This document shows positions 6,451 to 50,674 of a DNA stretch of 64,000 bases, one piece after another. The stretch lies in the sequence record NC_101837.1, one strand, 5' to 3'. Source of the stretch: a phage. Each line of letters starts with the position of its first letter. Position 1 is the stretch's first letter. Both the position numbers and the translations under genes were made by a program. The notes beneath the pieces were generated by a model. It worked only from the letters and a program-made list of their open reading frames with translations. It was not told the DNA's origin and made no database searches.

Positions 6451-6657
6451 ATGAAAGATTTTCTGTTGGCAATTTTGTTCATGGCAGCATGTCTGGCCTG
6501 TGGTGTCGTGTTTGCAGGTGAAACAGCGTATCTTGTCGATGTATATCGGGACAATGGTAAACGTATTTGCCTTTATGAGACAAGCCAAGGTGAGCTCTAC
6601 GAGCTTGTGAAACAAGGCGAGGCAGGTTCCTGCCCTCGCACCCATTTCTTTGAATAA
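6451..6657 (+). CDS. small putative lipoprotein (68 aa)
   Basis: N-terminal hydrophobic signal with lipobox-like MAAC/LAC; strong RBS. Confidence 0.45.
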   Translation: MKDFLLAILFMAACLACGVVFAGETAYLVDVYRDNGKRICLYETSQGELYELVKQGEAGSCPRTHFFE

Positions 6658-6666
6658 GGGGGATAC

Positions 6667-7131: not shown

Positions 7132-7414
7132 GAAACCTTTAAAAGAGAAATTTGATAAGACAGCTTTTGTATTCGATACACCTCTGGACGACATCATCAG
7201 AGGTATGCAATCCTTGTATCGGAAGGCTGAATCTGAGCAGTTGTCTGAATCAGAACTTTACTGGCTTGGTTGGTGGGAGTTAAACCTGCCTAAAGCTGAA
7301 AGTTCTTGTCTGAGAACTGTTAAAACGTGCGCCCAAGAAAACGCTGCACTTGGAATCTACCACAAAAGGAAAAGATCAACAAAAAGCTCTCCAAGAAAGA
7401 CCAAAAAGTCTTGA
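7124..7414 (+). CDS. hypothetical protein, basic C-terminus
   Basis: ATG 7124 overlaps upstream stop. Confidence 0.4.
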   Translation: MAKKPLKEKFDKTAFVFDTPLDDIIRGMQSLYRKAESEQLSESELYWLGWWELNLPKAESSCLRTVKTCAQENAALGIYHKRKRSTKSSPRKTKKS

Positions 7415-7440
7415 CAAAAGTGTTATTAATCTGATATTAT
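7411..7440 (+). promoter_or_regulatory. sigma70-like promoter
   Basis: TTGACA 7411-7416, then TATTAT about 18 bp downstream. Confidence 0.55.
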
Positions 7441-7473
7441 CGGTCAGATATCTATAAACTAGGAGAACTAGAT

Positions 7474-7782
7474 ATGCTTAAAATTTTTATTGTTGAAGAT
7501 AAAGATATTGTCCAGTTGTATGCAAACGAGAATCATAAAGGTATGATTCTGAAGAAGGCAAGCAACCTTCATGAAAACACAATTCAACCTGGCGATGTAA
7601 TTAAGATCTGTGGTTATATGATATCAGACTCCTTGATGAAAATAACCCACCACTGGGGGTCTAATCCGTTCCTTTTTGAAAAGTATTGGGATGTTGAGTC
7701 ACTTATTGCAGAGAGTGATGATGCATTCCATTACAGCATCCAACCATCTTGCAGAATAACTAACAGGAGGGTCTTTGAGTAG
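7474..7782 (+). CDS. hypothetical protein (102 aa)
   Basis: ORF after promoter with AGGAG RBS. Confidence 0.45.
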   Translation: MLKIFIVEDKDIVQLYANENHKGMILKKASNLHENTIQPGDVIKICGYMISDSLMKITHHWGSNPFLFEKYWDVESLIAESDDAFHYSIQPSCRITNRRVFE

Positions 7783-8914: not shown

Positions 8915-9246
8915 TGACTAAAAATTCTGTAGATAACGCAATTATGGAAGCTGTTTTTGAGGATGATCACACAACAGGGGCACTTAAAACAAAAAATACA
9001 TTCGTTGTTGCCACAGGTATGTGGCGGTTGTATGAAGATGACACCATTTCATACATCCTGTACACGGATGATTACGCAGATGACCGTGTATGGTCTGCTG
9101 TTTTAAAAGAGGATTGTGAGCTGATTGAGGGCGAGCGGTTATGCATGTTCACCAGTGTGGAAACAGATGTTAAGCTTTGCTCTCTCGTCTTGTTCAAAGA
9201 TAAGGCTTATGCTCCTGATGAAGGAGAGGAGGACGAGGAAGCATGA
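8911..9246 (+). CDS. hypothetical protein (111 aa, acidic C-terminus)
   Basis: Tiled ORF, ATGA overlap. Confidence 0.45.
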   Translation: MMTKNSVDNAIMEAVFEDDHTTGALKTKNTFVVATGMWRLYEDDTISYILYTDDYADDRVWSAVLKEDCELIEGERLCMFTSVETDVKLCSLVLFKDKAYAPDEGEEDEEA

Positions 9247-9872
9247 GAGAGCGTCTATTATCCATAGACCAGTCGTTGACACACACAGCTTGCGTTGTAT
9301 GGGACGATGGAAAGCCTGTTCATAAGGTTGTGTTACGAACTCAAAGCTCATCTGCAAAAGAGAAGAAACCAGGGACGGTTTCTTTTGCAACAGCTGCTGA
9401 GCGTATTGACTGGATCTGCAAACAGGTCAGGTATTATATCCACACGTACGGCGTTGACACCGTAGTTATGGAAGGGCTTTCCTTTGGATCACGCGGAGAT
9501 GCCACACGTGAACTGGCTGGGTTGTTTTACGGTCTTGAAGTTATGCTTTGGGATGCTTTAGCTGATTGTGAAAATGACGGCCTGTTTAAGGTCCACACAG
9601 TGACACCAACAACTGCCAAAAAGTTTGCTCGTAGTCATCTTCCTGAGGAACTTGCTTTCGAGGAGAAGAAAAAGCTTGACAAAAAGACAGGTAAAGAGCA
9701 TACTGTGAAGAAACCTGTTACGATGGATAAAAAGTTGATGGTTAAGGCCTGCGAAGTATCTGAACCTGGGTTCCTAGATGGGATCAATTTGGTACAAGGT
9801 AAGGCCGATCTCGCAGATGCTTATTGGATAGGCAGGGCGCATCTGGAGGGATTATCGCAAAGCGTAAAATAA
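9243..9872 (+). CDS. RuvC-like Holliday junction resolvase (putative)
   Basis: SIDQSLTHTACVV N-terminal strand, VVMEG, DLADAYWIG pattern of RuvC/YqgF fold; weak. Confidence 0.5.
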   Translation: MRERLLSIDQSLTHTACVVWDDGKPVHKVVLRTQSSSAKEKKPGTVSFATAAERIDWICKQVRYYIHTYGVDTVVMEGLSFGSRGDATRELAGLFYGLEVMLWDALADCENDGLFKVHTVTPTTAKKFARSHLPEELAFEEKKKLDKKTGKEHTVKKPVTMDKKLMVKACEVSEPGFLDGINLVQGKADLADAYWIGRAHLEGLSQSVK

Positions 9873-10429
9873 GAAAGAGAGCTGTCAAAGCCCCCGTTCA
9901 TAACGGGTGGTTAAAAGATTCTAAGGACATAGCCAACTTTCGAAAAGAATTGTCAGAGGAGCAGGATGGTCTTGATCCGATCTTGTGCGAGCCACTTCGT
10001 AAGCCTTGTTTGGATCATGACCATCTGACTGGTCGTTGCAGGGGTGTTTTGTCACAATGCACTAATACCTTTGAGGGGTATGTGCTTAAATACTGGATGA
10101 AATACTGTAACGAGTATACAGATTGCAGTTTATCAGAGGCGTTGCGCCGGATGGCTGACTATTTGGAGAAAGACTACAGCGACTTCCCGCTCCACAAAAA
10201 CTACAGAGATGATATGACAAAGTTCTTGAGGAGATGCTCTAAAGCTACGATCATTGCACGAGCAGAATCAGATCTCAATCTTGTCATTAATCCAGAGTGC
10301 ACCAAGCATGAGGCTATTGAGTTCTACATGCAAGAGTTTATAAAGAAAACTGAGGAGAGAGATTTCTATGGGGATGAAAAAGGTATTCAATCCTTGCGAC
10401 TCAGTCCTGATCAGGATGAAATACCGTAA
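9824..10429 (+). CDS. endonuclease VII-like recombination endonuclease
   Basis: CLDHDHLTGRCRGVLSQCTNTFEG matches T4 endo VII zinc/HNH motif; no in-frame ATG before motif, overlaps upstream gene by ~50 nt. Confidence 0.65.
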   Translation: MDRQGASGGIIAKRKIRKRAVKAPVHNGWLKDSKDIANFRKELSEEQDGLDPILCEPLRKPCLDHDHLTGRCRGVLSQCTNTFEGYVLKYWMKYCNEYTDCSLSEALRRMADYLEKDYSDFPLHKNYRDDMTKFLRRCSKATIIARAESDLNLVINPECTKHEAIEFYMQEFIKKTEERDFYGDEKGIQSLRLSPDQDEIP

Positions 10430-10589
10430 CTGGAAAGGTGTTGTTGCAGATCGCTGCGTTACTGAGCCTAATTTATGGTTTGGCTCTACAGAGTATCATA
10501 AAGAAGAGCAGTGGTTGATGCGTGCCTTCGATGTAGACAAGGGCGAATATCGTGACTTCGCTTTAAAAGACATTCTTCAGTTTTACTAA
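10368..10589 (+). CDS. hypothetical protein (73 aa)
   Basis: ORF overlapping 3' end of previous gene in another frame. Confidence 0.35.
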   Translation: MGMKKVFNPCDSVLIRMKYRNWKGVVADRCVTEPNLWFGSTEYHKEEQWLMRAFDVDKGEYRDFALKDILQFY

Positions 10590-10601
10590 GGAATCTTAAC
10601 G

Positions 10602-11585
10602 ATGATGACAAAGTTAACTCTTGAGCAAATTTTAACACTAAAGCAACAGGGATACACTAATAGACAAATTGCTCGTGAATTTTTAGGCCGTGAGTCACGT
10701 GAGAGCTGGATCCGACTACAGCTTAAACGTGCACAGGAGAATATGTCAGAGATTGTAGGAGAAGCAACGGAGCGCTTCCTTGAAGAGCACAAAGGTGCTA
10801 AAGTTTGGGTGTATGATACAGAGACATCTCCAACAAACGGCTGGTTCTTTGGGCACTATAAGACCAACATTCAAACCTGCGGTATTGAAATTATGCCCTA
10901 CATGCTAACTTTCGCAGGTAAGTGGTTAGACAGTCCTAGTGTGGTTGACTGCGCTCTTCCCGATTACAAAATGTGGGATGAGGATATTCACAATGATCTC
11001 GAATTGATTCAGGATTTGTGGTATTATCTAGATAAATGTGATGTCGCAGTAGCCCACAATTCAGGTTTTGACTGTGGGTGGGCCAACCAACGATTTGCAT
11101 TTCACGGGTTGCCTCCAACAAGCCCCTACAAAGAGGTTGACACCCTTAAAATGATCAAGAAGGCATTCCGTTTGAATGCAAACACTTTGGAGTATGCATG
11201 CAAATACTTCCAACTGGCCCGACAGAAACTGATTGATCACACATTTGAAATGTGGATCAAGTGTGTCCATGGTGATCTTGAGGCATTTAAACAGATGCGG
11301 GAGTATAATGTTGGTGATATCCTGTCTCTGGAAGGACTGTATTTGCTGGCTCGCCCGTTTGCTAAGCAGCACCCAAACATGTCATTGTACTATCAAGACG
11401 AGGAGCCAAAAGTTCGTTGTCCACGCTGTGGTGGAGAACACCTTCACGAGGAAGAAGCTTTGGCGTATACTCAACTGAGTGCATTTAAAACATACCGCTG
11501 CGAAGGTTGTGGATCTGTTGTTCGTGACCGTAACAACATCCGCACCAGAGAAGAAATGAAAAACACCCTGATTCAGATAATCTAA
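10602..11585 (+). CDS. DEDD-family 3'-5' exonuclease with C-terminal zinc ribbon
   Basis: VYDTETS (Exo I), VAHNSGFD (Exo II), CPRCGG...CEGCG ribbon. Confidence 0.6.
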   Translation: MMTKLTLEQILTLKQQGYTNRQIAREFLGRESRESWIRLQLKRAQENMSEIVGEATERFLEEHKGAKVWVYDTETSPTNGWFFGHYKTNIQTCGIEIMPYMLTFAGKWLDSPSVVDCALPDYKMWDEDIHNDLELIQDLWYYLDKCDVAVAHNSGFDCGWANQRFAFHGLPPTSPYKEVDTLKMIKKAFRLNANTLEYACKYFQLARQKLIDHTFEMWIKCVHGDLEAFKQMREYNVGDILSLEGLYLLARPFAKQHPNMSLYYQDEEPKVRCPRCGGEHLHEEEALAYTQLSAFKTYRCEGCGSVVRDRNNIRTREEMKNTLIQII

Positions 11586-11593
11586 CAATTATA

Positions 11594-11616
11594 GGGAGGC
11601 TTGCGCCTCCCTTTTC
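11594..11616 (+). terminator. intrinsic terminator
   Basis: GGGAGGC/GCCTCCC stem, TTGC loop, then TTTTCC. Confidence 0.65.
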
Positions 11617-11630
11617 CTCTTGGAGGCACT

Positions 11631-12449
11631 TTGAGCAAGAAAGAGTCCAACGACAAATACTACACAAACCCTGAGTATGCAGAATATCTTGTTGGTAAAG
11701 TAAAAGATAAGTATGGGAATTGTGCATACGTTGAGCCTTCTGCTGGAAGGGGTTCTTTTTCAAAACTATTTTCAGAGATACTGTCGTACGATTTAGTACC
11801 AGATCCTGAATTTGAAGGACCAACACCGTGCATTCAGGCAAACTTCTTGGAGGTGCATCCCAAGGCAGATGTCTTCATAGGTAACCCACCATTTGGCAAG
11901 AATTCATCCTTAGCTTGCAAATTCTTTAACCATTGTGCATCATTGCTAGAGCTTGGAGGGGCTATAGCCTTCATCTTGCCACGGACATTTGAAAAAATAT
12001 TTTTTGCAAACAAACTGGACATGTCGATGCACCTTGTCTACAGCGAAAGGTGCCCTAAGAATTCGTTTTTACTTAATGGCAAACCTTATGACGTGCCATG
12101 TGTTTTCCAAATTTGGGAGAAAAAGGCGTGCAATAGGGATCCTGTAGAGATTGGAGAGAATAAGTTATTTTCTTTTAGCACACCAGATGACTACGACTTC
12201 TGTGTAAGACGTGTTGGGTATAATGCTGGAAAAGTATTGGGGGATGATGACCCAAAATCTGAAGAATCAACATATTTCATAAAATCTTTAGTTGACGGTG
12301 TTGACAGAGTGTTTGCTGAATGCTATTCTTCTTTTCAAGAAGAAGCAGGTAAGACTGCTGGAATGAAGAGTATAGGTAAGAAAGAACTACAATACATTTT
12401 GGAGACCAGGTATGATCAAAAGCATAGACTTGACCAAAGAACTTACTGA
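11631..12449 (+). CDS. DNA N6-adenine methyltransferase (putative)
   Basis: VEPSAGRGSF (AdoMet motif I-like) and FIGNPPFG (motif IV); TTG at 11631 after GGAGG; track start 11601 lies inside terminator. Confidence 0.6.
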   Translation: MSKKESNDKYYTNPEYAEYLVGKVKDKYGNCAYVEPSAGRGSFSKLFSEILSYDLVPDPEFEGPTPCIQANFLEVHPKADVFIGNPPFGKNSSLACKFFNHCASLLELGGAIAFILPRTFEKIFFANKLDMSMHLVYSERCPKNSFLLNGKPYDVPCVFQIWEKKACNRDPVEIGENKLFSFSTPDDYDFCVRRVGYNAGKVLGDDDPKSEESTYFIKSLVDGVDRVFAECYSSFQEEAGKTAGMKSIGKKELQYILETRYDQKHRLDQRTY

Positions 12450-28490: not shown

Positions 28491-28724
28491 ATGAAAGTTA
28501 AATTTCTTACAGATTTAGGGTACCCTTCCTTGGTTGACTGTGTTGGTAAAATTGTGGAAGCAAAACGGCTATCTGCAAACGAGAATGTTGTCCTGGTTAA
28601 AGGGAAGGATTTACTAGCTGCAGGTGCAGAGTCTGGCAGGATCTCTCCTGATTATATGTATTACCTATCTTTAAGTAATCTGCCAGAGCGAGGCGGTAAA
28701 GGCCTTGAAGTTGTGGAGGAGTGA
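28491..28724 (+). CDS. small acidic protein, MKVK...VVEE family
   Basis: MKVKFL start, VKGKDLLAAGAESG motif, ends EVVEE; paralogous to 32053, 32267, 34139. Confidence 0.5.
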   Translation: MKVKFLTDLGYPSLVDCVGKIVEAKRLSANENVVLVKGKDLLAAGAESGRISPDYMYYLSLSNLPERGGKGLEVVEE

Positions 28725-28729
28725 CAGGT

Positions 28730-29254
28730 ATGCTTCTGATTAACTGGGAAGACCTCTATGGGGACAAAGACCCTGTTGCGTTTGTTGATCGTAGGTGGAG
28801 ATACACTGAAGAACAACTGGCGGCAAAAAATCTAACTGCAAAACGCAGAAAGATCATCCAGTGCAAGTACAAATACGCACAGTTTGCTGCAAAAGTGTCT
28901 CCACAAATCGAGAGCTTTGTGCTTAAATTGTATGACGAGTACCTCAAATCCAAATTGGATTTTGTGCAGGTGTACCGTGCACAGGTACGACCAGATACCA
29001 ACATGTGTAGATGGAAGGTTGTTTGTGAAGGTAAAGATTTGCCGCTCAGCTTGACAATTGAGTGGCGTTATGGGTATCATGAGTGTGGTCTGTATGATAT
29101 TTGGGATGTCATTGTAGATCCTGCTAAGCATCTGAACACAGAGGAGCTGGAATATATCAATAAGGTTATTCTCGATATGTTTTTCAGCTACACACATGAA
29201 AACTCTGAGAAAGAACGGGATAATTTTCTTGACACCCTCAGCGACCATTTGTAG
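28730..29254 (+). CDS. hypothetical protein
   Basis: ATG 28730 downstream of GGAGG; track start GTG 28721. Confidence 0.45.
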   Translation: MLLINWEDLYGDKDPVAFVDRRWRYTEEQLAAKNLTAKRRKIIQCKYKYAQFAAKVSPQIESFVLKLYDEYLKSKLDFVQVYRAQVRPDTNMCRWKVVCEGKDLPLSLTIEWRYGYHECGLYDIWDVIVDPAKHLNTEELEYINKVILDMFFSYTHENSEKERDNFLDTLSDHL

Positions 29255-29284
29255 TATACAATTTAACCTACAAAGGGAGGACCA

Positions 29285-29512
29285 ATGAGTATAAATGTTG
29301 TGCTAATAGGTTACCTGGTAATGTCCGTTATAACAGCGGTATTCTTGACAGGTGTATGCATCGTGTCCAGACGAAGGGTGAAGTTTGATGATTTTATCAC
29401 CATCATCACTGCTGCACCTTTTTGGCCTGTTGTTATCTTCATCGTAATAATGTGCCTAGTTGATTACTACAAGAATATCAGGAAGGAGAGTAGGGATGGA
29501 GACCGCACCTAA
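29285..29512 (+). CDS. small membrane protein (2 predicted TM helices)
   Basis: Two hydrophobic segments, basic loop. Confidence 0.45.
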   Translation: MSINVVLIGYLVMSVITAVFLTGVCIVSRRRVKFDDFITIITAAPFWPVVIFIVIMCLVDYYKNIRKESRDGDRT

Positions 29513-29648
29513 AACTATCTATACTGTTCTTAAAGAGATTGCGTTCTACGCAGATCTTAGCCAGGCACCTTTATGGGAAAAGAGCATGTATTTAAAATGG
29601 TGCGTTAATTTAGGGAGACCTTCCAGTGTTTCAAGCCATGTTTATTGA
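29496..29648 (+). CDS. hypothetical protein
   Basis: ATG after AGGAAGGAG. Confidence 0.35.
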   Translation: METAPKTIYTVLKEIAFYADLSQAPLWEKSMYLKWCVNLGRPSSVSSHVY

Positions 29649-29731
29649 GATGCTATCTGGGATATTGTTACTGGTAGCCATCTTAGGTGGTGCAGTTCTG
29701 ATGTATAACTATCTTGAAAAAGGAGACAGCA

Positions 29732-29917
29732 ATGGTAAAAAATAAATCTTTAGAGCAGGCTGAAAACCTTCTCCACGAGCTGGTAAAGGAGTGGAAAGTT
29801 GAATACTCAGATTTTAATGCACGAGAGGGTGAAGATTATTGGCCTACGGAGCGCTCAGAGGGCGAATGGTATCAAGATTTTATAGAGTGGTTATATCAGA
29901 CGTGCGATGAGGGGTGA
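29732..29917 (+). CDS. hypothetical protein
   Basis: Internal ATG of track ORF 29714..29917. Confidence 0.4.
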   Translation: MVKNKSLEQAENLLHELVKEWKVEYSDFNAREGEDYWPTERSEGEWYQDFIEWLYQTCDEG

Positions 29918-30384
29918 CGATGTTTGTTAAATATGTAAAAACGTGCCTCAACAGTCTTGGCAGAGAGCATTGGTACACCTTGCTTGAAAAAGGGGAAATT
30001 TTAACAAAATCTGGAAAGATAACTTTGATACCTCTTGATAGTAAAGGTAAAGACCCGTCACGACTTGTTATAGATGATTACGTTACAGGTGTGACGTTCG
30101 AGGTCTCTGTGGAGAGGTTAATACGCAGAGCTGGCGGCCCTTATGACCGAAGAGAGTATGTTTTCGATTCCGTTACAGAGATGGGGGAGCATCCGTCTTT
30201 AATGTTCAGGATGGTAATCAGAGATATGAGGTCATCTATAGATAGGATCGTAAAGGACATTAAGGAACCTTTTAGAGTAAAAGTTAAGAAGTTTTTCGAT
30301 TCTAAGATTAACATACTCGCCGTTGCACTAGGTGTAGTTCAACTTCTGTTAATTTTGCACTATTTTGAACTACTATTTAAGTAG
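29914..30384 (+). CDS. hypothetical protein (C-terminal hydrophobic helix)
   Basis: ATGA coupling. Confidence 0.45.
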   Translation: MTMFVKYVKTCLNSLGREHWYTLLEKGEILTKSGKITLIPLDSKGKDPSRLVIDDYVTGVTFEVSVERLIRRAGGPYDRREYVFDSVTEMGEHPSLMFRMVIRDMRSSIDRIVKDIKEPFRVKVKKFFDSKINILAVALGVVQLLLILHYFELLFK

Positions 30385-30446
30385 TAGTTGAGATATGGCA
30401 CAAAGGATGTGCCATAGTGAAATAAACTAAGAAAGAGGTAGAGAGA

Positions 30447-30794
30447 ATGCCAAAGATTAAAACGTTATTACTGTGGGTAGCTGTTTTAGCTTTTATAGGG
30501 TACTGGACTTGGGAAACTGAATTAAAAGATATCGGATATACCAGTCTTGAGAGCAAGGCGTGCATTGGCATAACCGATGCGTTCAGGCAAAATGCTATGG
30601 ATCATGAATGTGTTGATGCAGATATAGATGAGAAACTGTCTAAGGACAAAGATTTTTACCATGGGCATGCTTTACTTGATAGTGGTGACACTGTAGAGTT
30701 CTGGTCGTGGTTTCGTGAAGATGGAACAATAAAAACAGCAGTAAAGATCTCTAACAAAGAGTTAATGCTGTTGCAGCAAAAGGAGGCTCAATGA
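30447..30794 (+). CDS. hypothetical protein with N-terminal TM/signal
   Basis: LLWVAVLAFIGYW hydrophobic N-terminus. Confidence 0.45.
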   Translation: MPKIKTLLLWVAVLAFIGYWTWETELKDIGYTSLESKACIGITDAFRQNAMDHECVDADIDEKLSKDKDFYHGHALLDSGDTVEFWSWFREDGTIKTAVKISNKELMLLQQKEAQ

Positions 30795-31078
30795 TCTGGA
30801 TATCCTATGCTGATGGTACCATGCTGTATACTGCAGGTACCAGATATGAAGTTCAGGAGAACGATAAAAAATTTATCGTAAAAACATTTGACAAGGACGA
30901 CAACCTTTTGCTAGAATTGACTTACAAAGTTGGAGAGGTATCCAATATCCAGTTGGATTGTGGTCATAAAGATAATCCACTCAAAAAACCTGGAGTAGGT
31001 AAGGCTTCAGAAGAACGTCTGTCTCGTATTGCAGAAAGCGTTTCTCCCCAAAAATCTAAGAAGAGGACTAGAAAATGA
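30791..31078 (+). CDS. hypothetical protein
   Basis: Tiled ORF, ATGA overlap. Confidence 0.4.
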   Translation: MIWISYADGTMLYTAGTRYEVQENDKKFIVKTFDKDDNLLLELTYKVGEVSNIQLDCGHKDNPLKKPGVGKASEERLSRIAESVSPQKSKKRTRK

Positions 31079-31269
31079 AAAACTTACGTTTTAACACTTA
31101 TTACTACAACACATTGAATGATTTGTATTATATTGTTCGAAGTAAAAGTCCTGAAACAGTCCTATTCTGCCGCGAACCTTTCAAAGGGGAGGAAGTAGAG
31201 TCTGAGATGAATGTTAGCCAGATCACCTCTTTGTTGCTCTCAGGCGCAATGGAAGAAGCAATATTCTAA
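31075..31269 (+). CDS. hypothetical protein
   Basis: Tiled ORF. Confidence 0.4.
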   Translation: MKNLRFNTYYYNTLNDLYYIVRSKSPETVLFCREPFKGEEVESEMNVSQITSLLLSGAMEEAIF

Positions 31270-31287
31270 ACCAGGCAGGAGGGTTTT

Positions 31288-31476
31288 ATGAAGCACTATT
31301 GCCTGTCTGGTAGAATGGGTGCAGATTGTGATTGGGTTTTCTTAAAACTTGTCAGCATTCGAGAGTTCATCCCAGAGGAAGAGCAAGAAAGCGAGCTGAT
31401 GTCATGGATCAACCATTACGGTAACACTTTTCGGCATGTTAAGGTAGAAGAGTTGCCAAGCGAGGCTGAATTATGA
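31288..31476 (+). CDS. hypothetical protein
   Basis: RBS GGAGGG upstream. Confidence 0.4.
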   Translation: MKHYCLSGRMGADCDWVFLKLVSIREFIPEEEQESELMSWINHYGNTFRHVKVEELPSEAEL

Positions 31477-31769
31477 AACTTTTTGAGTGGTTTAAAAAGT
31501 TTAAATATAAAGCTGTAGCCATCGTGCCGTGGTCCATTCAGTGGGTTGATGAAGGTGGTCTACCGATACCTGGTGACAAAGATACTGGGTACTGGATTAT
31601 GATGGAGAACGGGTTTGGAAAGCGAAAGTATACGTGCACAAACTCTACTCGATCTGCACTTAATAGAGTGCCTGGTTACAAACTTATGGTTGTGTGGAAA
31701 ATGTCAGGCGTGCCTCCAGCCAATGCTCAATTTCTTACTGACAATCCGACCACGGTAGAGGGAGATTGA
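31473..31769 (+). CDS. hypothetical protein
   Basis: Tiled ORF. Confidence 0.4.
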   Translation: MKLFEWFKKFKYKAVAIVPWSIQWVDEGGLPIPGDKDTGYWIMMENGFGKRKYTCTNSTRSALNRVPGYKLMVVWKMSGVPPANAQFLTDNPTTVEGD

Positions 31770-31771
31770 TA

Positions 31772-32053
31772 ATGAAAAAGATTAACAGTAGTGAAGTAGA
31801 GTTTAAACTTGTCGGAAAAGGCACTTACTGGGAAGTTCGTCAAAAGGTATATTTGTTCGGTCTTATTCCCTACTGGTCTAAATTCTACTGGGGAGCTAAC
31901 GAGTTGGGAAGATACGCCACCAAATCAATGGCACTTATTGGTATAGCAGAGTACATTGCAGCCCGAGACAGGGTTGGAACCACTTATTACTACACTGCTG
32001 ACGATATTCGTAACAGTGTTTACGTCCCACAACCACCTGATGGAGACCGTTGA
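31772..32053 (+). CDS. hypothetical protein
   Basis: Tiled ORF. Confidence 0.4.
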   Translation: MKKINSSEVEFKLVGKGTYWEVRQKVYLFGLIPYWSKFYWGANELGRYATKSMALIGIAEYIAARDRVGTTYYYTADDIRNSVYVPQPPDGDR

Positions 32054-32277
32054 TGAAAGTTAAAGTTTTAGATTCAAGCTTCTATATTGGTCAGGAGCCT
32101 TTAGTAGGAAAAGTGTTTACTGCTGTCCCTAACGAAGATTACCCTGACCTTTTAAAAATAAAAGGAGCAGATCTTATTGCCGCTGGTGCATCTCAGGAAT
32201 GCTTTGACAGTCAGTGGACCTATAACTTTGCCCTAGGTGAGGATGTAGAGGTAGTGGAGGACGATCATGAAGGTTAA
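32053..32277 (+). CDS. small acidic protein, MKVK...VVEE family
   Basis: MKVKVLDSSFYIGQ, IKGADLIAAGASQE, ends VEVVEDD. Confidence 0.5.
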   Translation: MKVKVLDSSFYIGQEPLVGKVFTAVPNEDYPDLLKIKGADLIAAGASQECFDSQWTYNFALGEDVEVVEDDHEG

Positions 32278-32521
32278 AATTCTTGATTCTAACGTCTACT
32301 TGGGACAATCCTTCCTGAATGGAAAGGTCGTTCCTGCGGTATACTTTGAAGGGTTGCCGTGGGATGATCCTGTGCGGCAACATCACAGTTATGTAGGCCA
32401 CAACGTGGTGTTTATCTTGGGATCAGACCTGATCACCGCTGGTGCACCTGAATATTATTTCGGGGAAGAGTCCTACTATGCCTTTGGGGTAGGGTCAGAT
32501 GCAGATATTGTAGAGCTGTGA
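32267..32521 (+). CDS. small acidic protein, MKVK...VVEE family
   Basis: MKVKILDSNVYLGQ, GSDLITAGAPE, ends DIVEL; tandem with 32053. Confidence 0.5.
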   Translation: MKVKILDSNVYLGQSFLNGKVVPAVYFEGLPWDDPVRQHHSYVGHNVVFILGSDLITAGAPEYYFGEESYYAFGVGSDADIVEL

Positions 32522-32533
32522 TGGGTAACCGTT

Positions 32534-32932
32534 GTGAAAAATAAACTGTTTAAAGTTACAATGAAAATTCGCGGGGCTTGGAGCGTAAAGCAAGGGCGTA
32601 TCCCAGAATTTGAGAAAGACTTCTACGTAGTCTCCACCTCGGAGGAGGCTGCATGCTGGCAGGCTGGCTATGCATATGCAAGAACCTGGTACGAAGGATA
32701 CCAGACTGGTGGCTATGACGGAGAAATTATCAGCAAGGGTGTAGAAGAAATTAATGTGTTGACAAGTGAAAAAGTTTTTGTTATAGTGCATCCAGATTCC
32801 AGAGTGAAGCATTACTGGAATGCCAGAACAAAAACTTGGACACCGTTTGCAGATTCTGCTACACCACTTTTAAACCAGAAAGCTCTTGACTCTGTCCCGA
32901 GCTATGGGGTTGTTGAAGAAAAGCTAAACTGA
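32534..32932 (+). CDS. hypothetical protein, paralog of 34739..35134
   Basis: Shares HP(D/H)S..K.YYWN...K.WTP motif with 34739 gene. Confidence 0.45.
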   Translation: MKNKLFKVTMKIRGAWSVKQGRIPEFEKDFYVVSTSEEAACWQAGYAYARTWYEGYQTGGYDGEIISKGVEEINVLTSEKVFVIVHPDSRVKHYWNARTKTWTPFADSATPLLNQKALDSVPSYGVVEEKLN

Positions 32933-32949
32933 AACGGTGAGGTACTAAC

Positions 32950-33240
32950 ATGATGGATTTAGTTCTAGACACTGATAACACCGGAGCGTTTAAAAAGGAT
33001 GGTGTAACAAGCGTTGACCAATCATTCCCTGCCAAGATTGACTCAAAATGGACCTACAAGTTTGATGGAGAGATCTTCGCAAATGATGAGAAGGTTGTAG
33101 ATGCTGCAGCCATTTTGAACGCTCTAGGGTACGACCCTGTGAATTCTTTGATCAAGGATCCTGTTGAGTTTGCAGAGTATGTTCGAAAAATGGCAGATCT
33201 TGCTGTGGATATTTTAAAAACTATCGACAACAATCTGTAA
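32950..33240 (+). CDS. hypothetical protein
   Basis: Tiled ORF. Confidence 0.45.
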   Translation: MMDLVLDTDNTGAFKKDGVTSVDQSFPAKIDSKWTYKFDGEIFANDEKVVDAAAILNALGYDPVNSLIKDPVEFAEYVRKMADLAVDILKTIDNNL

Positions 33241-33246
33241 AAACTG

Positions 33247-33275
33247 TTGACACAACGCTTCAGATTTAGTATCAT
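33247..33275 (+). promoter_or_regulatory. sigma70-like promoter followed by leader hairpin
   Basis: TTGACA, 17 bp, TATCAT; hairpin AGAGGG/CCCTCT at about 33285-33303. Confidence 0.55.
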
Positions 33276-33322
33276 TGTTTTCAAAGAGGGTTTGGTTCCC
33301 TCTTCTTTAAAAGGAACACGTT

Positions 33323-33640
33323 ATGCAAATTGAAATCACTGGCAACGTAGAAATCACTGAAGGTATGGTGTCTTTCATTTCCCACAAAATGTCTAAGCTG
33401 GAGCGTTTGCATCCCTCTGCCAACTATGCACGTGTGAGTGTAAAAGTTGAAAATGATCACCAGGAAGTTATGGCGTTCATTTTTGACAATTCTGGAAAAG
33501 AAGTTATTGCCAAAGCTAAAGGCAGTGATGCTTACGAGGCAACTGACCGTATGGTAGATGTTGCAGCACGTCAACTGGCTAAATGCGGTGGAAAGAGAGG
33601 TAAGGGGAAAGGCAAAGTAAAGATTGACTTTAGAGAATGA
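33323..33640 (+). CDS. ribosome hibernation promoting factor / RaiA (YfiA) homolog
   Basis: MQIEITGNVEITEGM...KLERL...VSVKVEN...AKAKGSDAYEATDRMVDVAARQL is collinear with bacterial HPF/RaiA. Confidence 0.7.
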   Translation: MQIEITGNVEITEGMVSFISHKMSKLERLHPSANYARVSVKVENDHQEVMAFIFDNSGKEVIAKAKGSDAYEATDRMVDVAARQLAKCGGKRGKGKGKVKIDFRE

Positions 33641-33649
33641 GGTGCTACA

Positions 33650-33751
33650 ATGGGTGTGATCAAGAAATTAGTCCCAAATGTAGAGATTGCATGCTTTGAA
33701 ATTATGTTTGCAATCGCAGTTGTAGTTAATGTGTTAGGTTACGGCTATTAA
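33650..33751 (+). CDS. small hydrophobic peptide (33 aa)
   Basis: GAGGTG RBS, MGVIKKLVPNVEIACFEIMFAIAVVVNVLGYGY. Confidence 0.3.
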   Translation: MGVIKKLVPNVEIACFEIMFAIAVVVNVLGYGY

Positions 33752-33777
33752 TATCAAATAATTGAGGAGACCTCTAA

Positions 33778-34047
33778 ATGAAAATTAAATTATTCAAAAC
33801 TGAGCTGGCAGACAAAAACTGTGGACTGGTTGAAGGTATGATTGTCGAAGCACAACCAGTTGACTATATGAAGGTGGTTCGTGATGCCCTGGGTGAAGGT
33901 TTTGATCTGATGGAGCCAGCTCTGCGAGAAGATGTTATCGAGATGGCTAAAAAGCACACACCTGAAGGCATGGTGGTGTTTGTTGCACCGGGTAACGGAG
34001 AAGAGTTGATTGTAACTCCGGATGTGTATGAGATTGTAGAGGAATAA
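33778..34047 (+). CDS. small acidic protein, MK(I/V)K family
   Basis: MKIKLFK start, ends YEIVEE. Confidence 0.45.
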   Translation: MKIKLFKTELADKNCGLVEGMIVEAQPVDYMKVVRDALGEGFDLMEPALREDVIEMAKKHTPEGMVVFVAPGNGEELIVTPDVYEIVEE

Positions 34048-34138
34048 TCCTGCTTGGATTAGCATACTTCCTCGATAAGGAAGGTTTGTAATTATTTGTG
34101 GGAAAGGAATCCCAATCTCTTACCAGAGGTGATACTAT

Positions 34139-34402
34139 ATGATTGTTTATTTTAAAACTTCAGGTGGATACCCTGATTCTCAAAGCTTGATCGGAAAAAC
34201 GTGCACAGCATACTCACCTCTTGATGAGGAGGTAGGCGATATTCTACGAAATATGTATCGGATTGATCCTCAAGAAGCTTTTGATCAAAACCTTGTATTT
34301 GTCAAGGGCTCAGACATGAAGTCTTTGGGAGCATTCCCTGAAGCAGATGATGATGCCGTTTATTCGTTCATGACCCCTTTTGAAGCTATGGTTGTTGGGT
34401 GA
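34139..34402 (+). CDS. small acidic protein (family-related)
   Basis: VKGSDMKSLGAFPE resembles KG.DL..AGA motif. Confidence 0.45.
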   Translation: MIVYFKTSGGYPDSQSLIGKTCTAYSPLDEEVGDILRNMYRIDPQEAFDQNLVFVKGSDMKSLGAFPEADDDAVYSFMTPFEAMVVG

Positions 34403-34406
34403 TAAT

Positions 34407-34739
34407 ATGAAAGTACGCTTTATTGGTGAAACAATTCCTGTGCATCTCCGGTCGCCTGAGGATTCTGCAGATCTTGCATCTCAAAAGGCGAGAGGTTATG
34501 ATAAGAAAGTAACCTCAACTGATGTAGTGCTTGAGGCTACTAGTCTACCTGACCCTGCTGCATTCTTTAATCATTATGGGTACTATTTCAGCAATCTGAT
34601 GAATATCGGTGAGCTTGTGTTTATTAGTGGTGGAGAAATTGTTAGCAAGCTTGGCGGCGATCCGGATATCTTTCATGAAACCTGTCCTTTTGCATTTGTA
34701 GTAGGTTCAGATGTGGAAGTTATTGAGGAGGTGCGGTAA
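34407..34739 (+). CDS. small acidic protein
   Basis: MKVRFIG start, ends VEVIEE. Confidence 0.45.
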   Translation: MKVRFIGETIPVHLRSPEDSADLASQKARGYDKKVTSTDVVLEATSLPDPAAFFNHYGYYFSNLMNIGELVFISGGEIVSKLGGDPDIFHETCPFAFVVGSDVEVIEEVR

Positions 34740-35134
34740 TGGTAAGCCTATACCGTGTTGAGTATAGCTCAGATACTGTATACAACGTAAGAAGCAAAGA
34801 TCGCAGCGACAGAGTGCAAGAAATGTATGTTCTTGCCGACAGTCCGTTATCTGCAGCGTTCAAGGCAGGGGCTCTTGCATCTCGTTGGAAATTTGAAGGT
34901 GGATCTTTCTATGAAGAAACCCTTGAAGATTCTGTTGTTATTTCTTCTGTAGAGGTTTCAGATGACTACGAAGGGAAAAAGTTCGTAATGCGGCACCCAC
35001 ACAGCAACATTGCGTACTACTGGGATGTTCTGAACAACGAGTGGACCCCAGATCTTCAGAAGGCTACTGTGCTAACACCGTTTTTGGCAGATAAGTTCCC
35101 ACCAGAAGGTAATTTATCCGCACTGTTTCAGTAA
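34739..35134 (+). CDS. hypothetical protein, paralog of 32534..32932
   Basis: RHPHSNIAYYWDVLNNEWTP motif shared with 32534 gene. Confidence 0.45.
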   Translation: MVSLYRVEYSSDTVYNVRSKDRSDRVQEMYVLADSPLSAAFKAGALASRWKFEGGSFYEETLEDSVVISSVEVSDDYEGKKFVMRHPHSNIAYYWDVLNNEWTPDLQKATVLTPFLADKFPPEGNLSALFQ

Positions 35135-35152
35135 TTTTCTTGCACACAGGTG

Positions 35153-35181
35153 TTGACAACGCCAACCCTGTGTGAAATAAT
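35153..35181 (+). promoter_or_regulatory. sigma70-like promoter with -35 inside inverted repeat
   Basis: TTGACA, 17 bp, AATAAT; 8-bp inverted repeat CACACAGG/CCTGTGTG flanks the -35. Confidence 0.5.
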
Positions 35182-35213
35182 ACCTTCATCTTAACAAGAC
35201 AGGGGACCGATTG

Positions 35214-35471
35214 ATGAAGATTAAATTGAAAAACCTTGAAACGGCAGAGATTCAGGACGGTGTTGATTTCCGTTCTAAAGATGGTGACATCTTAGAGGTA
35301 AATATTCCAACCTACGAGCTGATTAAAGGTTTTGGCAACGTTCCGGAAGAGGATATTACAGAAATTCTTATGATGTTGATTCTTGACGGAACTGTGTTTG
35401 TAGGTGAAGGTGAGAACGCTATTGCAATCCCAGGCCATTTTTATGAAGTAGTTGACGAAGAGGTGCTGTAA
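35214..35471 (+). CDS. small acidic protein
   Basis: MKIKLKNL start, ends VVDEEVL. Confidence 0.45.
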   Translation: MKIKLKNLETAEIQDGVDFRSKDGDILEVNIPTYELIKGFGNVPEEDITEILMMLILDGTVFVGEGENAIAIPGHFYEVVDEEVL

Positions 35472-35822
35472 ATGAAAGTAGAAATTACCGGTTTTGATGT
35501 GAATGTGGTTCCGGAAGATATTTTAGCTAAACTTCCAGAAGGTTTTGGTAACGGCGTTGTGGTGGATGCTGTTCCTCCTACTAAAGACATTCTGCTGCAG
35601 TATGGTGTAGCAGAGGAAGATGTCGATAAAGTTCTTACAATGATGGCAATCGATCGTGTTGTCGTTGTTAAAGGTCTCGATAATTTTGAGAGTGATCCAC
35701 TGATTATTCGTGGAGATGACTACAAAATCATCGATAATGAAGGCCAAGAGTTCTATGAGCCTTGTGCAGAAGATATTCTTAACTTATTACTGGAAGCAGG
35801 CACCGAAGAGGAGGACGAATAA
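35472..35822 (+). CDS. small acidic protein
   Basis: MKVEITG start, acidic C-terminus. Confidence 0.45.
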   Translation: MKVEITGFDVNVVPEDILAKLPEGFGNGVVVDAVPPTKDILLQYGVAEEDVDKVLTMMAIDRVVVVKGLDNFESDPLIIRGDDYKIIDNEGQEFYEPCAEDILNLLLEAGTEEEDE

Positions 35823-36151
35823 TGAAGATTGACCCGTTACTGAAGGCTCGTGCAGAAAAAGCGTACACCATTAAGTTGACCAACTTGGTTCCTACTTGTC
35901 ATCCGGATGTAGGTTGGCCCGAAGGTTTGGTGGAGGGAACTGTAACAGCTGCATACCTTCCTAACATCAAATACCTCATGGAAATCTTGGAGCTGGATGA
36001 GGAAACGGCAGAAGAGTTCCAGTTGGACATGAAACAAAGTGGGACTCTGGTTATTCACGGGTGGTACAATACTAAAGATGCAGAAGACCCTCTGGTAACT
36101 TCTAATCTGGCATATGAAATCTTAGGGCCTTTGAACCTGGAGGAAGACTAA
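35822..36151 (+). CDS. small acidic protein
   Basis: ATGA coupling, acidic. Confidence 0.45.
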   Translation: MKIDPLLKARAEKAYTIKLTNLVPTCHPDVGWPEGLVEGTVTAAYLPNIKYLMEILELDEETAEEFQLDMKQSGTLVIHGWYNTKDAEDPLVTSNLAYEILGPLNLEED

Positions 36152-36438
36152 TGAAAGATCTGGTTAAGATTAAGATTAAAGATACCAATGGAGAACTCAG
36201 CCATTTTGGAATTAATGATGGTGACGAGCTGATCGCACACCTGCCTACCAAGGAAGTTGTAAGCAAAGCAGTTGCCGGAGAAGAAGATGCAATGCAGGCT
36301 GCAGGTGTGGATGAAAACTATGTAGCTATGTGCATGTGCCGAGATCAGGTTGTTCTGTATAAAGCGTATCGACCAAACGGAGCCACGGAGTGGCTTGTAT
36401 TCCGACCAGAAGGATATGAAATCTTAGAGGCACTATGA
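36151..36438 (+). CDS. small acidic protein
   Basis: ATGA coupling. Confidence 0.45.
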   Translation: MKDLVKIKIKDTNGELSHFGINDGDELIAHLPTKEVVSKAVAGEEDAMQAAGVDENYVAMCMCRDQVVLYKAYRPNGATEWLVFRPEGYEILEAL

Positions 36439-37914: not shown

Positions 37915-38222
37915 GGTGGATTATGTCTACAAAGGCGGCTAAATACTCCTATATGCCATCAACCTCTGCAGAGGTAGACTTTAGTTTCGATGTGTTTCCA
38001 CTGTTTGAGGTGATTCTGGCATACCCAACAATACTATCTACTCCTGAATCACTTGTACCTGTTAAGTTGCAGAACGCTATGCATTCTATGCACTACAACA
38101 ATAAATGTAGGCACAGATGGTGTCAGGACGAGGAAAAAGATTTGGATAGTTTGAGGGATTTTGACAGTCACCTTTTGACACCTTTCAGCTACTCCAACCT
38201 TGATAAGCCCTCATGGGTATAG
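37911..38222 (+). CDS. hypothetical protein (103 aa)
   Basis: ATGA coupling. Confidence 0.4.
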   Translation: MRWIMSTKAAKYSYMPSTSAEVDFSFDVFPLFEVILAYPTILSTPESLVPVKLQNAMHSMHYNNKCRHRWCQDEEKDLDSLRDFDSHLLTPFSYSNLDKPSWV

Positions 38223-41616: not shown

Positions 41617-42036
41617 TTATAATGATTCGTATATTTCAAAAATCCGATTTGCCAGGTCGTTACGGTACCGGAATTTTTCATCACGTTTGATCATAAGATC
41701 TTTATAGCCGTACTCTTTAAGCACTTCATTAACTTTATGGCGGCACACCTTCATATTATCCTGAGCGTCACCAATAAACCTGTTGCTATGGTGCATGGCT
41801 TTAATTTCTTCTTCCAGGACCAGGGCAACTATGCGGACCGGATCAAGCTGATAGGCGGTAACATCCATGCGGCATTGTAAACGGCTTTTTACGTCTGCCA
41901 CCGGATATACTGCAACCTCTTCCCCGTCAACATTGACAATAATTAGTTTACCATCGATTTCGAATCCTTTCGCCGCCGGACCGTGACAAAAAGCGTTATC
42001 AAAGCTATATGCCGGATTATTAGATTTAATGTTCAT
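41617..42036 (-). CDS. hypothetical protein (139 aa)
   Basis: Last gene of leftward block. Confidence 0.45.
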   Translation of the reverse strand: MNIKSNNPAYSFDNAFCHGPAAKGFEIDGKLIIVNVDGEEVAVYPVADVKSRLQCRMDVTAYQLDPVRIVALVLEEEIKAMHHSNRFIGDAQDNMKVCRHKVNEVLKEYGYKDLMIKRDEKFRYRNDLANRIFEIYESL

Positions 42037-42179: not shown

Positions 42180-42443
42180 TTATTTGTTGCTCATCCAGTT
42201 TTCCCAAGCTGCCTGATAATCTGCCTCACTACGGCGGATCTCTTCTTGCTCTTCAAGTCGGATCTCTTCTTCCAGGTACCCCAAGATGTCAGCCTTTTTG
42301 GTCTGGCGTAGCATCCAGTCATCTTTTTTGCGAGTGAAGATCTTATAAGCTTTCTCGCAAACCTCTTTTTTGCTACCTTTCTGGACTTCAAGAACACGAT
42401 AAGCCATATATTGAACTAATTTGAGCTGATCAAGGCGTTTCAT
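42180..42443 (-). CDS. hypothetical charged protein
   Basis: Tiled ORF. Confidence 0.45.
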   Translation of the reverse strand: MKRLDQLKLVQYMAYRVLEVQKGSKKEVCEKAYKIFTRKKDDWMLRQTKKADILGYLEEEIRLEEQEEIRRSEADYQAAWENWMSNK

Positions 42444-43332: not shown

Positions 43333-43617
43333 TTAACGGTTTACGTAAGTTTTCCCGTTTACGGTGATGGGCAGATCCTCCAGGTCTGGATCTTCCTTAA
43401 GGTCGCGAGCAAGTTCACCGCACCGGACACCCTCGAATCCGTAGTACTCTGTCGTGCCGTCCTTAAAAGTTTTAGCGGCAAGGCATAAGCGATAAGTAAC
43501 CCCGATTCGATTGACGGCATGAATATCCGTTAGATTAACCTCTTTTGCCAGCTCTTTAGCCATTACAGGCGCATTAAGTCCAACAACCAGGGCAACCACT
43601 GCGATCATCTTTTTCAT
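43333..43617 (-). CDS. secreted/periplasmic small protein
   Basis: Signal peptide MKKMIAVVALVVGLNAPVMA. Confidence 0.5.
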   Translation of the reverse strand: MKKMIAVVALVVGLNAPVMAKELAKEVNLTDIHAVNRIGVTYRLCLAAKTFKDGTTEYYGFEGVRCGELARDLKEDPDLEDLPITVNGKTYVNR

Positions 43618-43708: not shown

Positions 43709-43924
43709 CTATGCTGTACGCTCAACTATAACAACGGTTTGAGGGATCTCACCTTCCACCACTATCAAGGCCTTTTTCTGCGTGATGGATATCTTTACCC
43801 GTTGCAGCGTGGCGGTGAAGTCTTTCATTTCGTCACGTGGTGTTTTAGTGCAATACCAGATCTCAGGCTTGCCGATCTGTAAGTTGCGTAAAAATTCCGT
43901 TTTGCCTGTTTTGTTAGTGATCAT
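43709..43924 (-). CDS. hypothetical protein
   Basis: Tiled ORF. Confidence 0.4.
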   Translation of the reverse strand: MITNKTGKTEFLRNLQIGKPEIWYCTKTPRDEMKDFTATLQRVKISITQKKALIVVEGEIPQTVVIVERTA

Positions 43925-44379
43925 TTGCCAACCTCACCCGATACCGTTGGAAGACAAGATCACATTAGCCATGGTTGCAATCAGGCCAATACCCAGGGCA
44001 ATAACCAGGATCACCGCATCAATTAATTTCTGTTTCATTTTGTTTTCCTCTTCTTGTTCCAGGTGGCGGACCATTCCACCGCCTTATGTATTATGCTTTG
44101 TAAGATGGTTGTTTGTTTTCAAACTATTTTAACGATAATCATCGTACGCTTTATTAACCTGGCGAATATAACATTCAAAAGCCAGATCAATAGATTTATA
44201 TTCACGGATATACTCACCATAGGAAACCACATACATTTCTATAGCTTCCTCATATGCGAGGAGAATAGAATCCAAGCCTACGATCTCAGTCTTTGCAATA
44301 ATAGCCATGATTTTTATCCTCTTTGTGGTTGGTGGGGCTTGCCCCTTTGATTTATATACTACAGTCTTATATGGTCATG

Positions 44380-50278: not shown

Positions 50279-50674
50279 TCAATAAGTTTTTAGTACTTTC
50301 CCGTCCAATCTGTCAAGCTGGATCTCGATAGCTGCAGAAAACCTATTGTAAACCACATCGCCCAGGGAGTCCAGCCAATCTATGACGTTATATACCTGCT
50401 CTTTATTCTTGCAAGTCCGGATCCGTTTCATTACGTAAGACGGATCAATATTAGCGCTCTCGTTGTTGTGGTCCTGCGCCTGGCCTGCTGCGCTAGTTAT
50501 AGATTTTACAACCACCTGAAAGGGCTTTAAGGTGCCTTTTGCGTTCATCTCACGCGCTTTTGCGGCGCGGTTGTTATATGTTACACAACGGCGGCAAATG
50601 TTGACCAAATGCATATCAATAATTTTTTCATCGTTTGCCAGTTCGTTCATGATGCGGCGTACGTTCTTATTCAT
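50279..50674 (-). CDS. hypothetical protein (131 aa)
   Basis: RBS AAGGAAA; leader hairpin GGCGGGAA/TTCCCGCC. Confidence 0.45.
   Translation of the reverse strand: MNKNVRRIMNELANDEKIIDMHLVNICRRCVTYNNRAAKAREMNAKGTLKPFQVVVKSITSAAGQAQDHNNESANIDPSYVMKRIRTCKNKEQVYNVIDWLDSLGDVVYNRFSAAIEIQLDRLDGKVLKTY

Follow-up and report, generated by a model that had tools for sequence, protein, structure and literature searches.

Two families of small, predicted SH3-like barrel proteins in an rV5-like phage and a candidate host-specific cassette among them

Introduction

The 64,000-nucleotide stretch of sequence record NC_101837.1 analysed here (the window; positions are counted from its first letter) comes from a Vequintavirus, an rV5-like Escherichia coli phage, and is 98–99% identical to published genomes. 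Between positions 28,491 and 36,438 it encodes a series of small, mostly acidic proteins, several of which begin and end alike. Do these proteins form one expanded family, as a preliminary description made from the sequence had proposed, and what could such an expansion do for the phage? The question has practical weight, as rV5-like phages are widely used candidates for therapy and biocontrol and about two thirds of their genes are without known function. The genes themselves and their groupings in the PHROG database are already public, and phage proteins consisting of a standalone SH3-like domain have been described before. Here, we delineate two families of five members each, describe their common predicted fold and insertion site as well as the wider distribution of the first family, trace the acidic tails in part to embedded Shine–Dalgarno sites, and link three of the genes to a previously unreported signal of conditional essentiality. 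Ten “hypothetical” genes are thereby turned into two defined structural families.

Results

Two families of five paralogs

All open reading frames (ORFs) in question are present on the plus strand and are annotated coding sequences with Shine–Dalgarno sites in related genomes; we label them A to J, with two associated genes X1 and X2 (Table 1). Four of them (A to D) had been said to share three motifs. A and B indeed carry all three, an MKVK start, (V/I)KG.DL(I/L)AAGA and an (L/V)EVVE(E/D) end, and C carries variants (MKVK, ILGSDLITAGA, DIVEL), but D retains only a degenerate middle motif (VKGSDMKSLGA) between an MIVYF start and an AMVVG end. Five neighbours had been thought to share the termini; E proved to be a full member of the same family as A to D (family 1), whereas F, G, H and J, together with the previously unlisted I, make up a second family (family 2).

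The support for family 1 is strong. In an all-against-all blastp comparison of the 156 window proteins, B/C (8.5e-14) and X1/X2 (1e-7) are the best pairs overall; A/B follows at 4e-6, and B/E, C/E, A/D, G/H and H/J lie between 2e-3 and 3e-2. A hidden Markov model (HMM) built from A, B and C recovers D (5e-7) and E (1.6e-5) and nothing else, converging with the next match at E=0.15, and C and E align by hhalign at 1e-5. Family 2 is supported more weakly but consistently: G and H are paired by blastp (2e-3) and hhalign (2.1e-4), J is linked to H by phmmer (3.2e-4), an HMM of G and H finds J (3.3e-3), and one of G, H and J finds F (4.4e-5) and I (9.5e-3) before converging, with the next match at E=0.22. 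Overall, the paralogs are mutually 19–40% identical. Each of the ten was also scored by an HMM of its four siblings against 2000 shuffles of its own sequence, and all ten outscored every one of their shuffles, at 18.6–59.8 bits versus a shuffle maximum of 9.4 in family 1 (A, 25.9 versus 5.7) and, with narrower margins, at 12.6–21.2 bits versus a maximum of 11.5 in family 2 (G, 12.6 versus 11.1; H, 19.9; I, 15.1 versus 9.4; J, 21.2). Among 528 profile–profile comparisons between 33 orthologue groups from 24–38 kb, within-family pairs and X1/X2 fill 10 of the top 12 ranks. Six-frame HMM scans found exactly these five plus five copies, and no more, both in the window and in the non-structural 91 kb of the related phage Bas54 (positions 45–136 kb). 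The alignment and HMM building that had been proposed as a check on the expansion thus give the shared motifs statistical support within each family, and the expansion itself is upheld by blastp, HMMs and shuffling, as two families rather than one.

This paralogy is only partly visible in PHROGs. A, B and C belong to phrog_5009 (8.3e-36, 1.7e-38 and 3.7e-32, respectively), which is matched by 20 of 21 aligned family-1 sequences, and the remaining seven each match, end to end, a separate single-orthologue group. D falls in phrog_13920 and matches phrog_5009 weakly (1.2e-4), and E has no match to phrog_5009 at 0.01. Family 1 thereby corresponds to phrog_5009 with satellites 13367, 13920 and 13661, and family 2 to 11868, 12359, 12155, 12457 and 12794, all labelled “unknown function”. 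D, E and all five family-2 members are split off in this scheme, so that it captures neither the kinship among the ten genes nor their common fold.

A common predicted fold with a variable loop

The ten proteins are single-domain, 74–116 amino acids long and mostly acidic, with isoelectric points of 4.05–4.7 (A, 5.4) and net charges of −7 to −21. One member of each family was modelled with AlphaFold2, and both are predicted to adopt an SH3-like small β-barrel of five strands. For B (21 diverse family-1 sequences; mean predicted local distance difference test score, pLDDT, 94.3; predicted template modelling score, pTM, 0.81) the strands span residues 2–5, 21–23, 33–37, 56–61 and 65–69, and a short helix at 38–43 coincides with the G.DL..A motif. 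For F (20 family-2 sequences; pLDDT 91.4) they span residues 2–5, 22–27, 66–69, 76–79 and 84–88, with a helical insertion at 30–60. In both models strand 1 is formed by the N-terminal MK(V/I)K and strand 5 by the C-terminal (E/Y)(V/I)(V/I)E. Insertions sit between strands 2 and 3, being absent from B, loop-like in C, D and E, and helical in F, so the members would differ mainly at this one site, which the two families appear to share.

Foldseek searches against viral models returned only uncharacterised small phage proteins, among which SH3-like barrels are common. Nine of the ten window proteins match no Pfam family at E<=1, KOW, SH3 and Tudor included, and the only matches of J are sub-threshold and unrelated (LRAT 0.072, HTH_16 0.22). 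Likewise, the 21 family-1 sequences match neither Pfam SH3 nor KOW, with RANK_CRD_2 and CBM_X2 as the only weak matches at E<=1; the PDB sequence search gave no match below E=0.4, and NCBIfam nothing meaningful. The modelled barrels, each of five antiparallel strands, can be superposed on small β-barrels of the SH3, KOW (Spt5, NusG), PsaE and retroviral integrase C-terminal domain type, at 4–25% sequence identity to the matches and with no Pfam SH3/KOW match, but the G.DL..AGA helix after strand 3 in family 1 and the helical insertion in family 2 are foreign to them. A DNA-mimicking anti-restriction protein of the Ocr/ArdA type is not what we find: the proteins are acidic, but the two models are compact β-barrels, and neither Pfam nor the PDB yielded a sequence match (the geometry of the surface charge was not analysed).

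Shared termini and the relationship between the families

Are the two families one? We tried and rejected a single superfamily of ten, as inter-family hhalign matches (P=0.03 to 0.0016) cover only the N-terminal 27–29 columns. The inter-family profile score of 21.8 exceeds that of column shuffles (8.3±1.8), but it drops to background once the first 2–5 residues are trimmed, also with divergent orthologues added; common descent of the two families is therefore not shown by sequence. The terminal motifs, defined post hoc, are nevertheless enriched in the region, the N-terminal one in 7 of 26 proteins inside versus 3 of 90 outside and the C-terminal one in 7 of 26 versus 0 of 90.

The similarity between the families, restricted to the terminal strands, is in part generic. 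MK is a favoured start, and GAG GAG or GAG GTN codons at the end of a gene carry the Shine–Dalgarno sequence of the coupled gene that follows, so that the acidic tails of B, E, G, H and I, which contain GGAGG or GAGG preceding the next start, can be read as the next gene's Shine–Dalgarno translated into Glu codons. Window-wide, the final six residues encoded by coupled genes (stop within 12 nucleotides of the next start) include 1.74 acidic ones, versus 0.97 for the other genes (P=4e-4), a difference that persists when family members are removed (1.5 versus 0.9); a Shine–Dalgarno-like motif stands in the last 21 nucleotides of 67% of coupled and 15% of uncoupled genes, and the more acidic C-termini result from this GAGG/GGAG being read as Glu codons. 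Carried to its end, this argument would make the two groups unrelated small proteins alike only at their ends, as the collapse of the profile score on trimming also suggests. We consider that rather unlikely. Homology within each family spans the whole length, F ends in YEIVEE though no coupled gene lies downstream, distant family-1 members of unrelated phages retain an E(V/I)(V/I)EE end, and in the predicted barrels of both modelled proteins the two ends form strands 1 and 5 and the insertion occupies the same loop. The paralogy is confirmed by the sequence comparisons as two families of five, predicted to share a fold but without significant sequence similarity past the N-terminal strand; their common descent is plausible, and the predicted fold points towards it. 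More generally, acidity arising from embedded Shine–Dalgarno sites calls for caution wherever families in compact phage genomes are defined by motifs.

Old duplications under purifying selection

The expansion had been called lineage-specific. This holds for all of family 2 and for X1/X2, found only in rV5-like contigs, and for the five-copy state of family 1, which we observe in rV5-like phages alone. When the family-1 profile was searched exhaustively with HMMER against 1.84 billion representative proteins, it returned 24 proteins at E<1e-3, about 14 of which are distant members of 63–83 amino acids with the same pattern, MKVKLL..GGY.G...VGKV..A....I.G.(D/E)LI..GA...F.....Y.F....E.E(V/I)(V/I)EE. 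One relative (P0031), 43% identical to A, is encoded in lambdoid E. coli prophages, with the Q antiterminator on one side and the holin on the other; others come from a Proteus phage, which has two copies, and from T1-like, RB49-like, Pantoea and Iodobacter phages, where as a rule a single copy is detectable. Judged from these sequences, family 1 is not lineage-specific; its five-fold expansion is. Two further matches, the giant adhesin-like proteins P0097 and P0098 (3e-8 and 1e-6), were set aside as spurious, their scores being summed over short “NVTF.SG.DIILAG” repeats of a YDG/MBG-domain protein.

Nor was the suggestion of diversifying selection supported. Within the genus, orthologues are 78–100% identical, and gene-wide, pairwise ratios of nonsynonymous to synonymous substitution rates (dN/dS) against FV3 and YP-6 are 0.03–0.16 (dS about 0.09–1.06), like those of neighbouring genes, which indicates purifying selection (site-specific tests were not run). 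The divergent 126-kb relative L014 retains all ten as 1:1 orthologues in the same gene order (identities: A 74%, B 66%, C 42%, D 57%, E 55%, F 60%, G 49%, H 29%, I 47%, J 46%). The duplications are thus old, and each copy has been individually maintained.

A three-gene cassette in which insertions are lost on a clinical strain

Both B-C and D-E are followed by a further gene, X1 and X2, respectively, which belong to neither family but are paralogs of each other (hhalign 1.1e-7, 27% identical) with a conserved HP.S....YW.....WTP motif. Their placement, each behind a family-1 gene pair, suggests that a cassette of three genes was duplicated long ago. In 118 Vequintavirus records X2 is conserved at 95% identity or more; L014 has an X2 orthologue (40% identical) and lacks X1, and the prophage and Proteus family-1 loci have no adjoining X-family gene. 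An assignment of X2 to the E2/UBC-like proteins was also considered and rejected: its top PDB sequence matches were a trio of E2 enzymes at E 0.4–0.8, the X1/X2 profile gave PI4K2A (E 0.13) instead, and Pfam gave nothing.

Transposon insertion data for Bas54 were taken from Extended Data Table 8 of the HIDEN-SEQ preprint (10.1101/2025.11.20.689424). Bas54 is phage MaxBurger (MZ501093; matched by locus tags and coordinates), and its proteins are 98–100% identical to those of the window. On E. coli K-12, A, B, C, G, H, I, J, X1 and X2 are classed as “Non-essential” and D, E and F as “Intermediate”, with 0.69–0.73 of TA sites hit (10.1101/2025.11.20.689424); all ten family members are thus dispensable on this host. 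A different picture emerges when K-12 BW25113 is compared with the uropathogenic strain CFE311. Here, insertions in D, E and X2 are lost completely (log2 fold changes of −7.16, −6.17 and −6.77; zero reads; adjusted p<1e-5), X1 is depleted to a lesser degree (−2.14; adjusted p<1e-5), F changes non-significantly (−2.78), and A, B, C, G, H, I and J are unchanged, with B at +0.98 and C at −0.30 (10.1101/2025.11.20.689424). Insertions tolerated on K-12 but lost on CFE311 fit a host-specific, probably counter-defence, role. The earlier suggestion of host takeover or anti-defence thereby gains support for D and E alone, the other eight being untested or neutral there. In the preprint's sheets S6/S7, the “K-12 vs CFE303” sheet repeats the CFE311 command line (311 wig file) and its numbers, so that one clinical host is readable.

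Genomic setting and probable timing

Positions 28–37 kb are 98–99% identical to about 115 complete rV5-like genomes, for example rV5_ev147, Murica and phiWec191, across which the family region is conserved at 91–99% nucleotide identity. Positions 1–38.3 kb form a single plus-strand block of nucleotide-metabolism genes followed by about 45 small genes. The first part encodes ribonucleotide reductases, thymidylate synthase, PhoH, ClpP and a methyltransferase, and the small genes are labelled hypothetical in all records, except a ribosome hibernation factor (HPF) gene at 33323–33640. In the rV5 authors' annotation, ORF127–153 lie within one transcription unit (82–163) with E. coli-type promoters predicted throughout, including P144 and P150. 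We find B-C-X1, D-E-X2 and G-H-I-J as translationally coupled runs with σ70-type promoters upstream, and promoter-like sites are in excess overall (59 versus 37.9±5.9 expected in the consensus scan). From these promoters and the block shared with the nucleotide-metabolism genes, we infer early (or mid-infection) expression of the ten proteins.

Table 1. Family members, associated genes and putative signals in the window
Feature	Position	Strand	Length (amino acids)	rV5 counterpart	Bas54 gene	Remarks
A, family 1	28491..28724	+	77	ORF127	bas54_0166	
B, family 1	32053..32277	+	74	ORF140	bas54_0159	11-nucleotide overlap with C
C, family 1	32267..32521	+	84	ORF141	bas54_0158	insertion between strands 2 and 3
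X1, associated gene	32534..32932	+	132		bas54_0157	after B-C; not a family member; paralog of X2; phrog_7379
Promoter-like site, TTGACA-17-TATCAT	33247..33275	+		P144		σ70-like, 11/12 match; upstream of HPF gene and F
F, family 2	33778..34047	+	89	ORF146	bas54_0153	
Terminator-like hairpin	34067..34083	+				between F and D; consensus scan only
D, family 1	34139..34402	+	87	ORF147	bas54_0152	
E, family 1	34407..34739	+	110	ORF148	bas54_0151	two insertions
X2, associated gene	34739..35134	+	131		bas54_0150 (99% identical)	after D-E; start overlaps E stop; phrog_7379
Promoter-like site, TTGACA-17-AATAAT	35153..35181	+		P150		σ70-like, TG-extended, 11/12 match; upstream of G-H-I-J
G, family 2	35214..35471	+	85	ORF150	bas54_0149	
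H, family 2	35472..35822	+	116	ORF151	bas54_0148	acidic C-terminal extension
I, family 2	35822..36151	+	109	ORF152	bas54_0147	weakest member; absent from the preliminary list
J, family 2	36151..36438	+	95	ORF153/154	bas54_0146	

Discussion

That the ten genes are real, expressed accessory genes encoding two ancient paralog families is well supported by the comparisons above; non-functional ORFs are excluded by purifying selection together with the transposon phenotypes. As to function, we envision each paralog as a small, stoichiometric, cytoplasmic protein binder made early or mid-infection, in which the conserved barrel would serve as scaffold while the variable loop and surface choose the target. 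We would expect this target to be a protein of the host and, for one member or more, a barrier that blocks infection in particular strains: D-E-X2 would be a three-part counter-defence or host-adaptation module that removes a block specific to CFE311, and A, B, C and F to J may matter only on other hosts. To this account as a whole, from ancient barrel families to protein binders with one host-specific module, we give a little less than an even chance. A more detailed version, in which D and E act as two divergent SH3-like adaptors with X2 as an unrelated effector or partner against the CFE311 barrier, and the whole array is a toolbox of barrel-scaffold binders tuned by the strand-2/3 insertion to different host immune or physiological targets, is offered tentatively and is rather doubtful; it would explain why all ten are under purifying selection despite being dispensable on K-12.

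There is precedent for such a role. Nip of Bacillus phage Phi3T, an inhibitor of the SpbK TIR NADase, is a counter-defence protein in which SH3-like domains make up the predicted binding part (PMC11984713). It differs in having 279 amino acids, with two SH3-like domains and an HU-like dimerisation domain, and in belonging to Bacillus phages; we liken it by description, and no sequence relationship is expected. Closer in setting are bas54_0140 and bas54_0063, depleted in the same screen, on the same host and to the same extent as D, E and X2, but unrelated to them in sequence and with a knockout-confirmed link to the predicted defence system DS-28.

Several points weigh against the proposed roles. 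Eight of the ten members have no phenotype on either of the two hosts with data, neither family has a characterised member or a known target, and the early timing is read from promoters. The need for the cassette on CFE311 could stem from host physiology or receptor usage, tail-fibre genes also changing in the screen, and polarity on X2 could still underlie the loss of insertions in D and E. Moreover, the preprint's follow-up is limited to bas54_0063 and bas54_0140 versus DS-28, with no mention of D, E or X2 (10.1101/2025.11.20.689424).

How far could simpler explanations go? If polarity were at work, only X2, and partly X1, would matter on CFE311, and the SH3-like proteins would have no host-specific role; the tight coupling of D, E and X2, whose stops and starts overlap or lie 4 nucleotides apart, and their equal and complete loss are what this predicts. 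In the parallel B-C-X1 cassette, however, X1 insertions are depleted but B and C insertions are not, the preprint's authors report few polar effects (10.1101/2025.11.20.689424), and on K-12 D and E are “Intermediate” but X2 “Non-essential”, the opposite of simple polarity. These observations together argue that D and E are required themselves and leave polarity an unlikely explanation. The proteins could also be general host-takeover factors, KOW- or Tudor-like barrels docking on RNA polymerase, the ribosome or the nucleoid, which the HPF gene inside the cluster and the mild fitness cost of D, E and F insertions even on K-12 would suit. Set against this, no Pfam KOW, SH3 or Tudor match appears at E<=1, the acidity of the proteins speaks against binding to nucleic acids, seven of the ten are not needed at all on K-12, and the strongest phenotype is strain-specific; we find such a general role distinctly unlikely.

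A part in lysis is suggested by a standalone SH3 protein beside the lysis cassette of Drexlerviridae (PMC13164509), the DUF7244 protein proposed as an auxiliary lysis factor of T1-like phages, which is likewise small, single-domain, SH3-like, encoded by its own phage gene, and widespread but not universal (PMC13164509). P0031 lies three genes upstream of a holin and downstream of the Q antiterminator, and the Proteus phage copies are also upstream of a holin. Yet the differences prevail: DUF7244 is single-copy (PMC13164509), whereas here the genes are multi-copy and, in Vequintavirus, away from the lysis genes. In Bas54, the families occupy 98–104 kb, versus a holin at about 87 kb (bas54_0115), an endolysin at about 126 kb (bas54_0202) and spanins bas54_0001/0002; no member has a Pfam match, DUF7244's presence in the Pfam copy searched being unconfirmed; the T1-like relative Tls GJGTLS_04 stands among small genes at the genome's left end, away from lysis genes; and the proteins are acidic, with no N-terminal hydrophobic signal sequence obvious by eye (no predictor was run). 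An auxiliary lysis function is thus very improbable. As a separate matter, GJGTLS_04 was examined as a possible instance of the published DUF7244 protein and rejected, with no Pfam match, 6.5 bits against the family-1 HMM and no lysis genes nearby.

Taken together, the window and the published transposon data single out the cassette at 34139–35134 as required on a clinical E. coli strain and not on K-12. If D-E-X2 is a host-specific module of the kind proposed, a new counter-defence or host-range module, and with it the host system overcome, would be named. Other phages, where single copies are widespread, could likewise be searched for this scaffold family of small SH3-like barrels with a variable loop. 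The finding is no surprise in kind, but it provides a specific lead that can be put to the test, in a group of phages relevant to therapy.

Neighbouring genes and other features

Metagenomic relatives of 32053–33240 include natural recombinants (P0006, P0038, P0037), namely a chimera of the B N-terminus and the C C-terminus, a fusion of the C N-terminus to the C-terminus of the 32950–33240 product, and an internal deletion of C, which indicate unequal crossing-over between the tandem copies. B and the unrelated 96-amino-acid protein of 32950–33240 both carry DS(Q/K)WTY(N/K)F (hhalign P=4.6e-4 over 10 columns), which may be chance or a common short element. The HPF gene at 33323–33640 (plus strand), in mid-cluster, matches Pfam Ribosomal_S30AE (1.3e-12), has its own σ70-like promoter and is non-essential in Bas54.

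Downstream of the cluster by 1.5 kb, the gene at 37923–38222 (plus strand) is 100% identical to bas54_0140, which is required against the predicted defence system DS-28 (10.1101/2025.11.20.689424). Six small minus-strand genes, at 41617–42036, 42180–42443, 43333–43617, 43712–43924, 44129–44308 and 50279–50674, are orthologues of bas54_0134, 0133, 0127, 0126, 0123 and 0106; these are also depleted on CFE311 (log2 fold changes of −2.2 to −5.2), making them further candidate host-specific genes. Between about 38300 and 41600, some 3 kb lack convincing ORFs; the plus- and minus-strand gene blocks converge there and the cumulative GC skew peaks. Its Bas54 equivalent (about 2 kb) tolerated no transposon insertions, and Rfam and tRNA scans of the window, this stretch included, gave no match. 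Further along the minus strand are two tandem paralog sets, at 59401–59721/59725–59979 and at 60438–60632/60629–60856/60853–61227 (blastp 3e-7, 2e-4 and 1.4e-2), some with MK(V/I) starts and none detected by either family HMM. Finally, 18 GenBank records (MG0656xx) titled “Campylobacter phage” are 98–99% identical to this rV5-like E. coli phage over the whole region and are probably mislabelled or derived from contaminated lysates.

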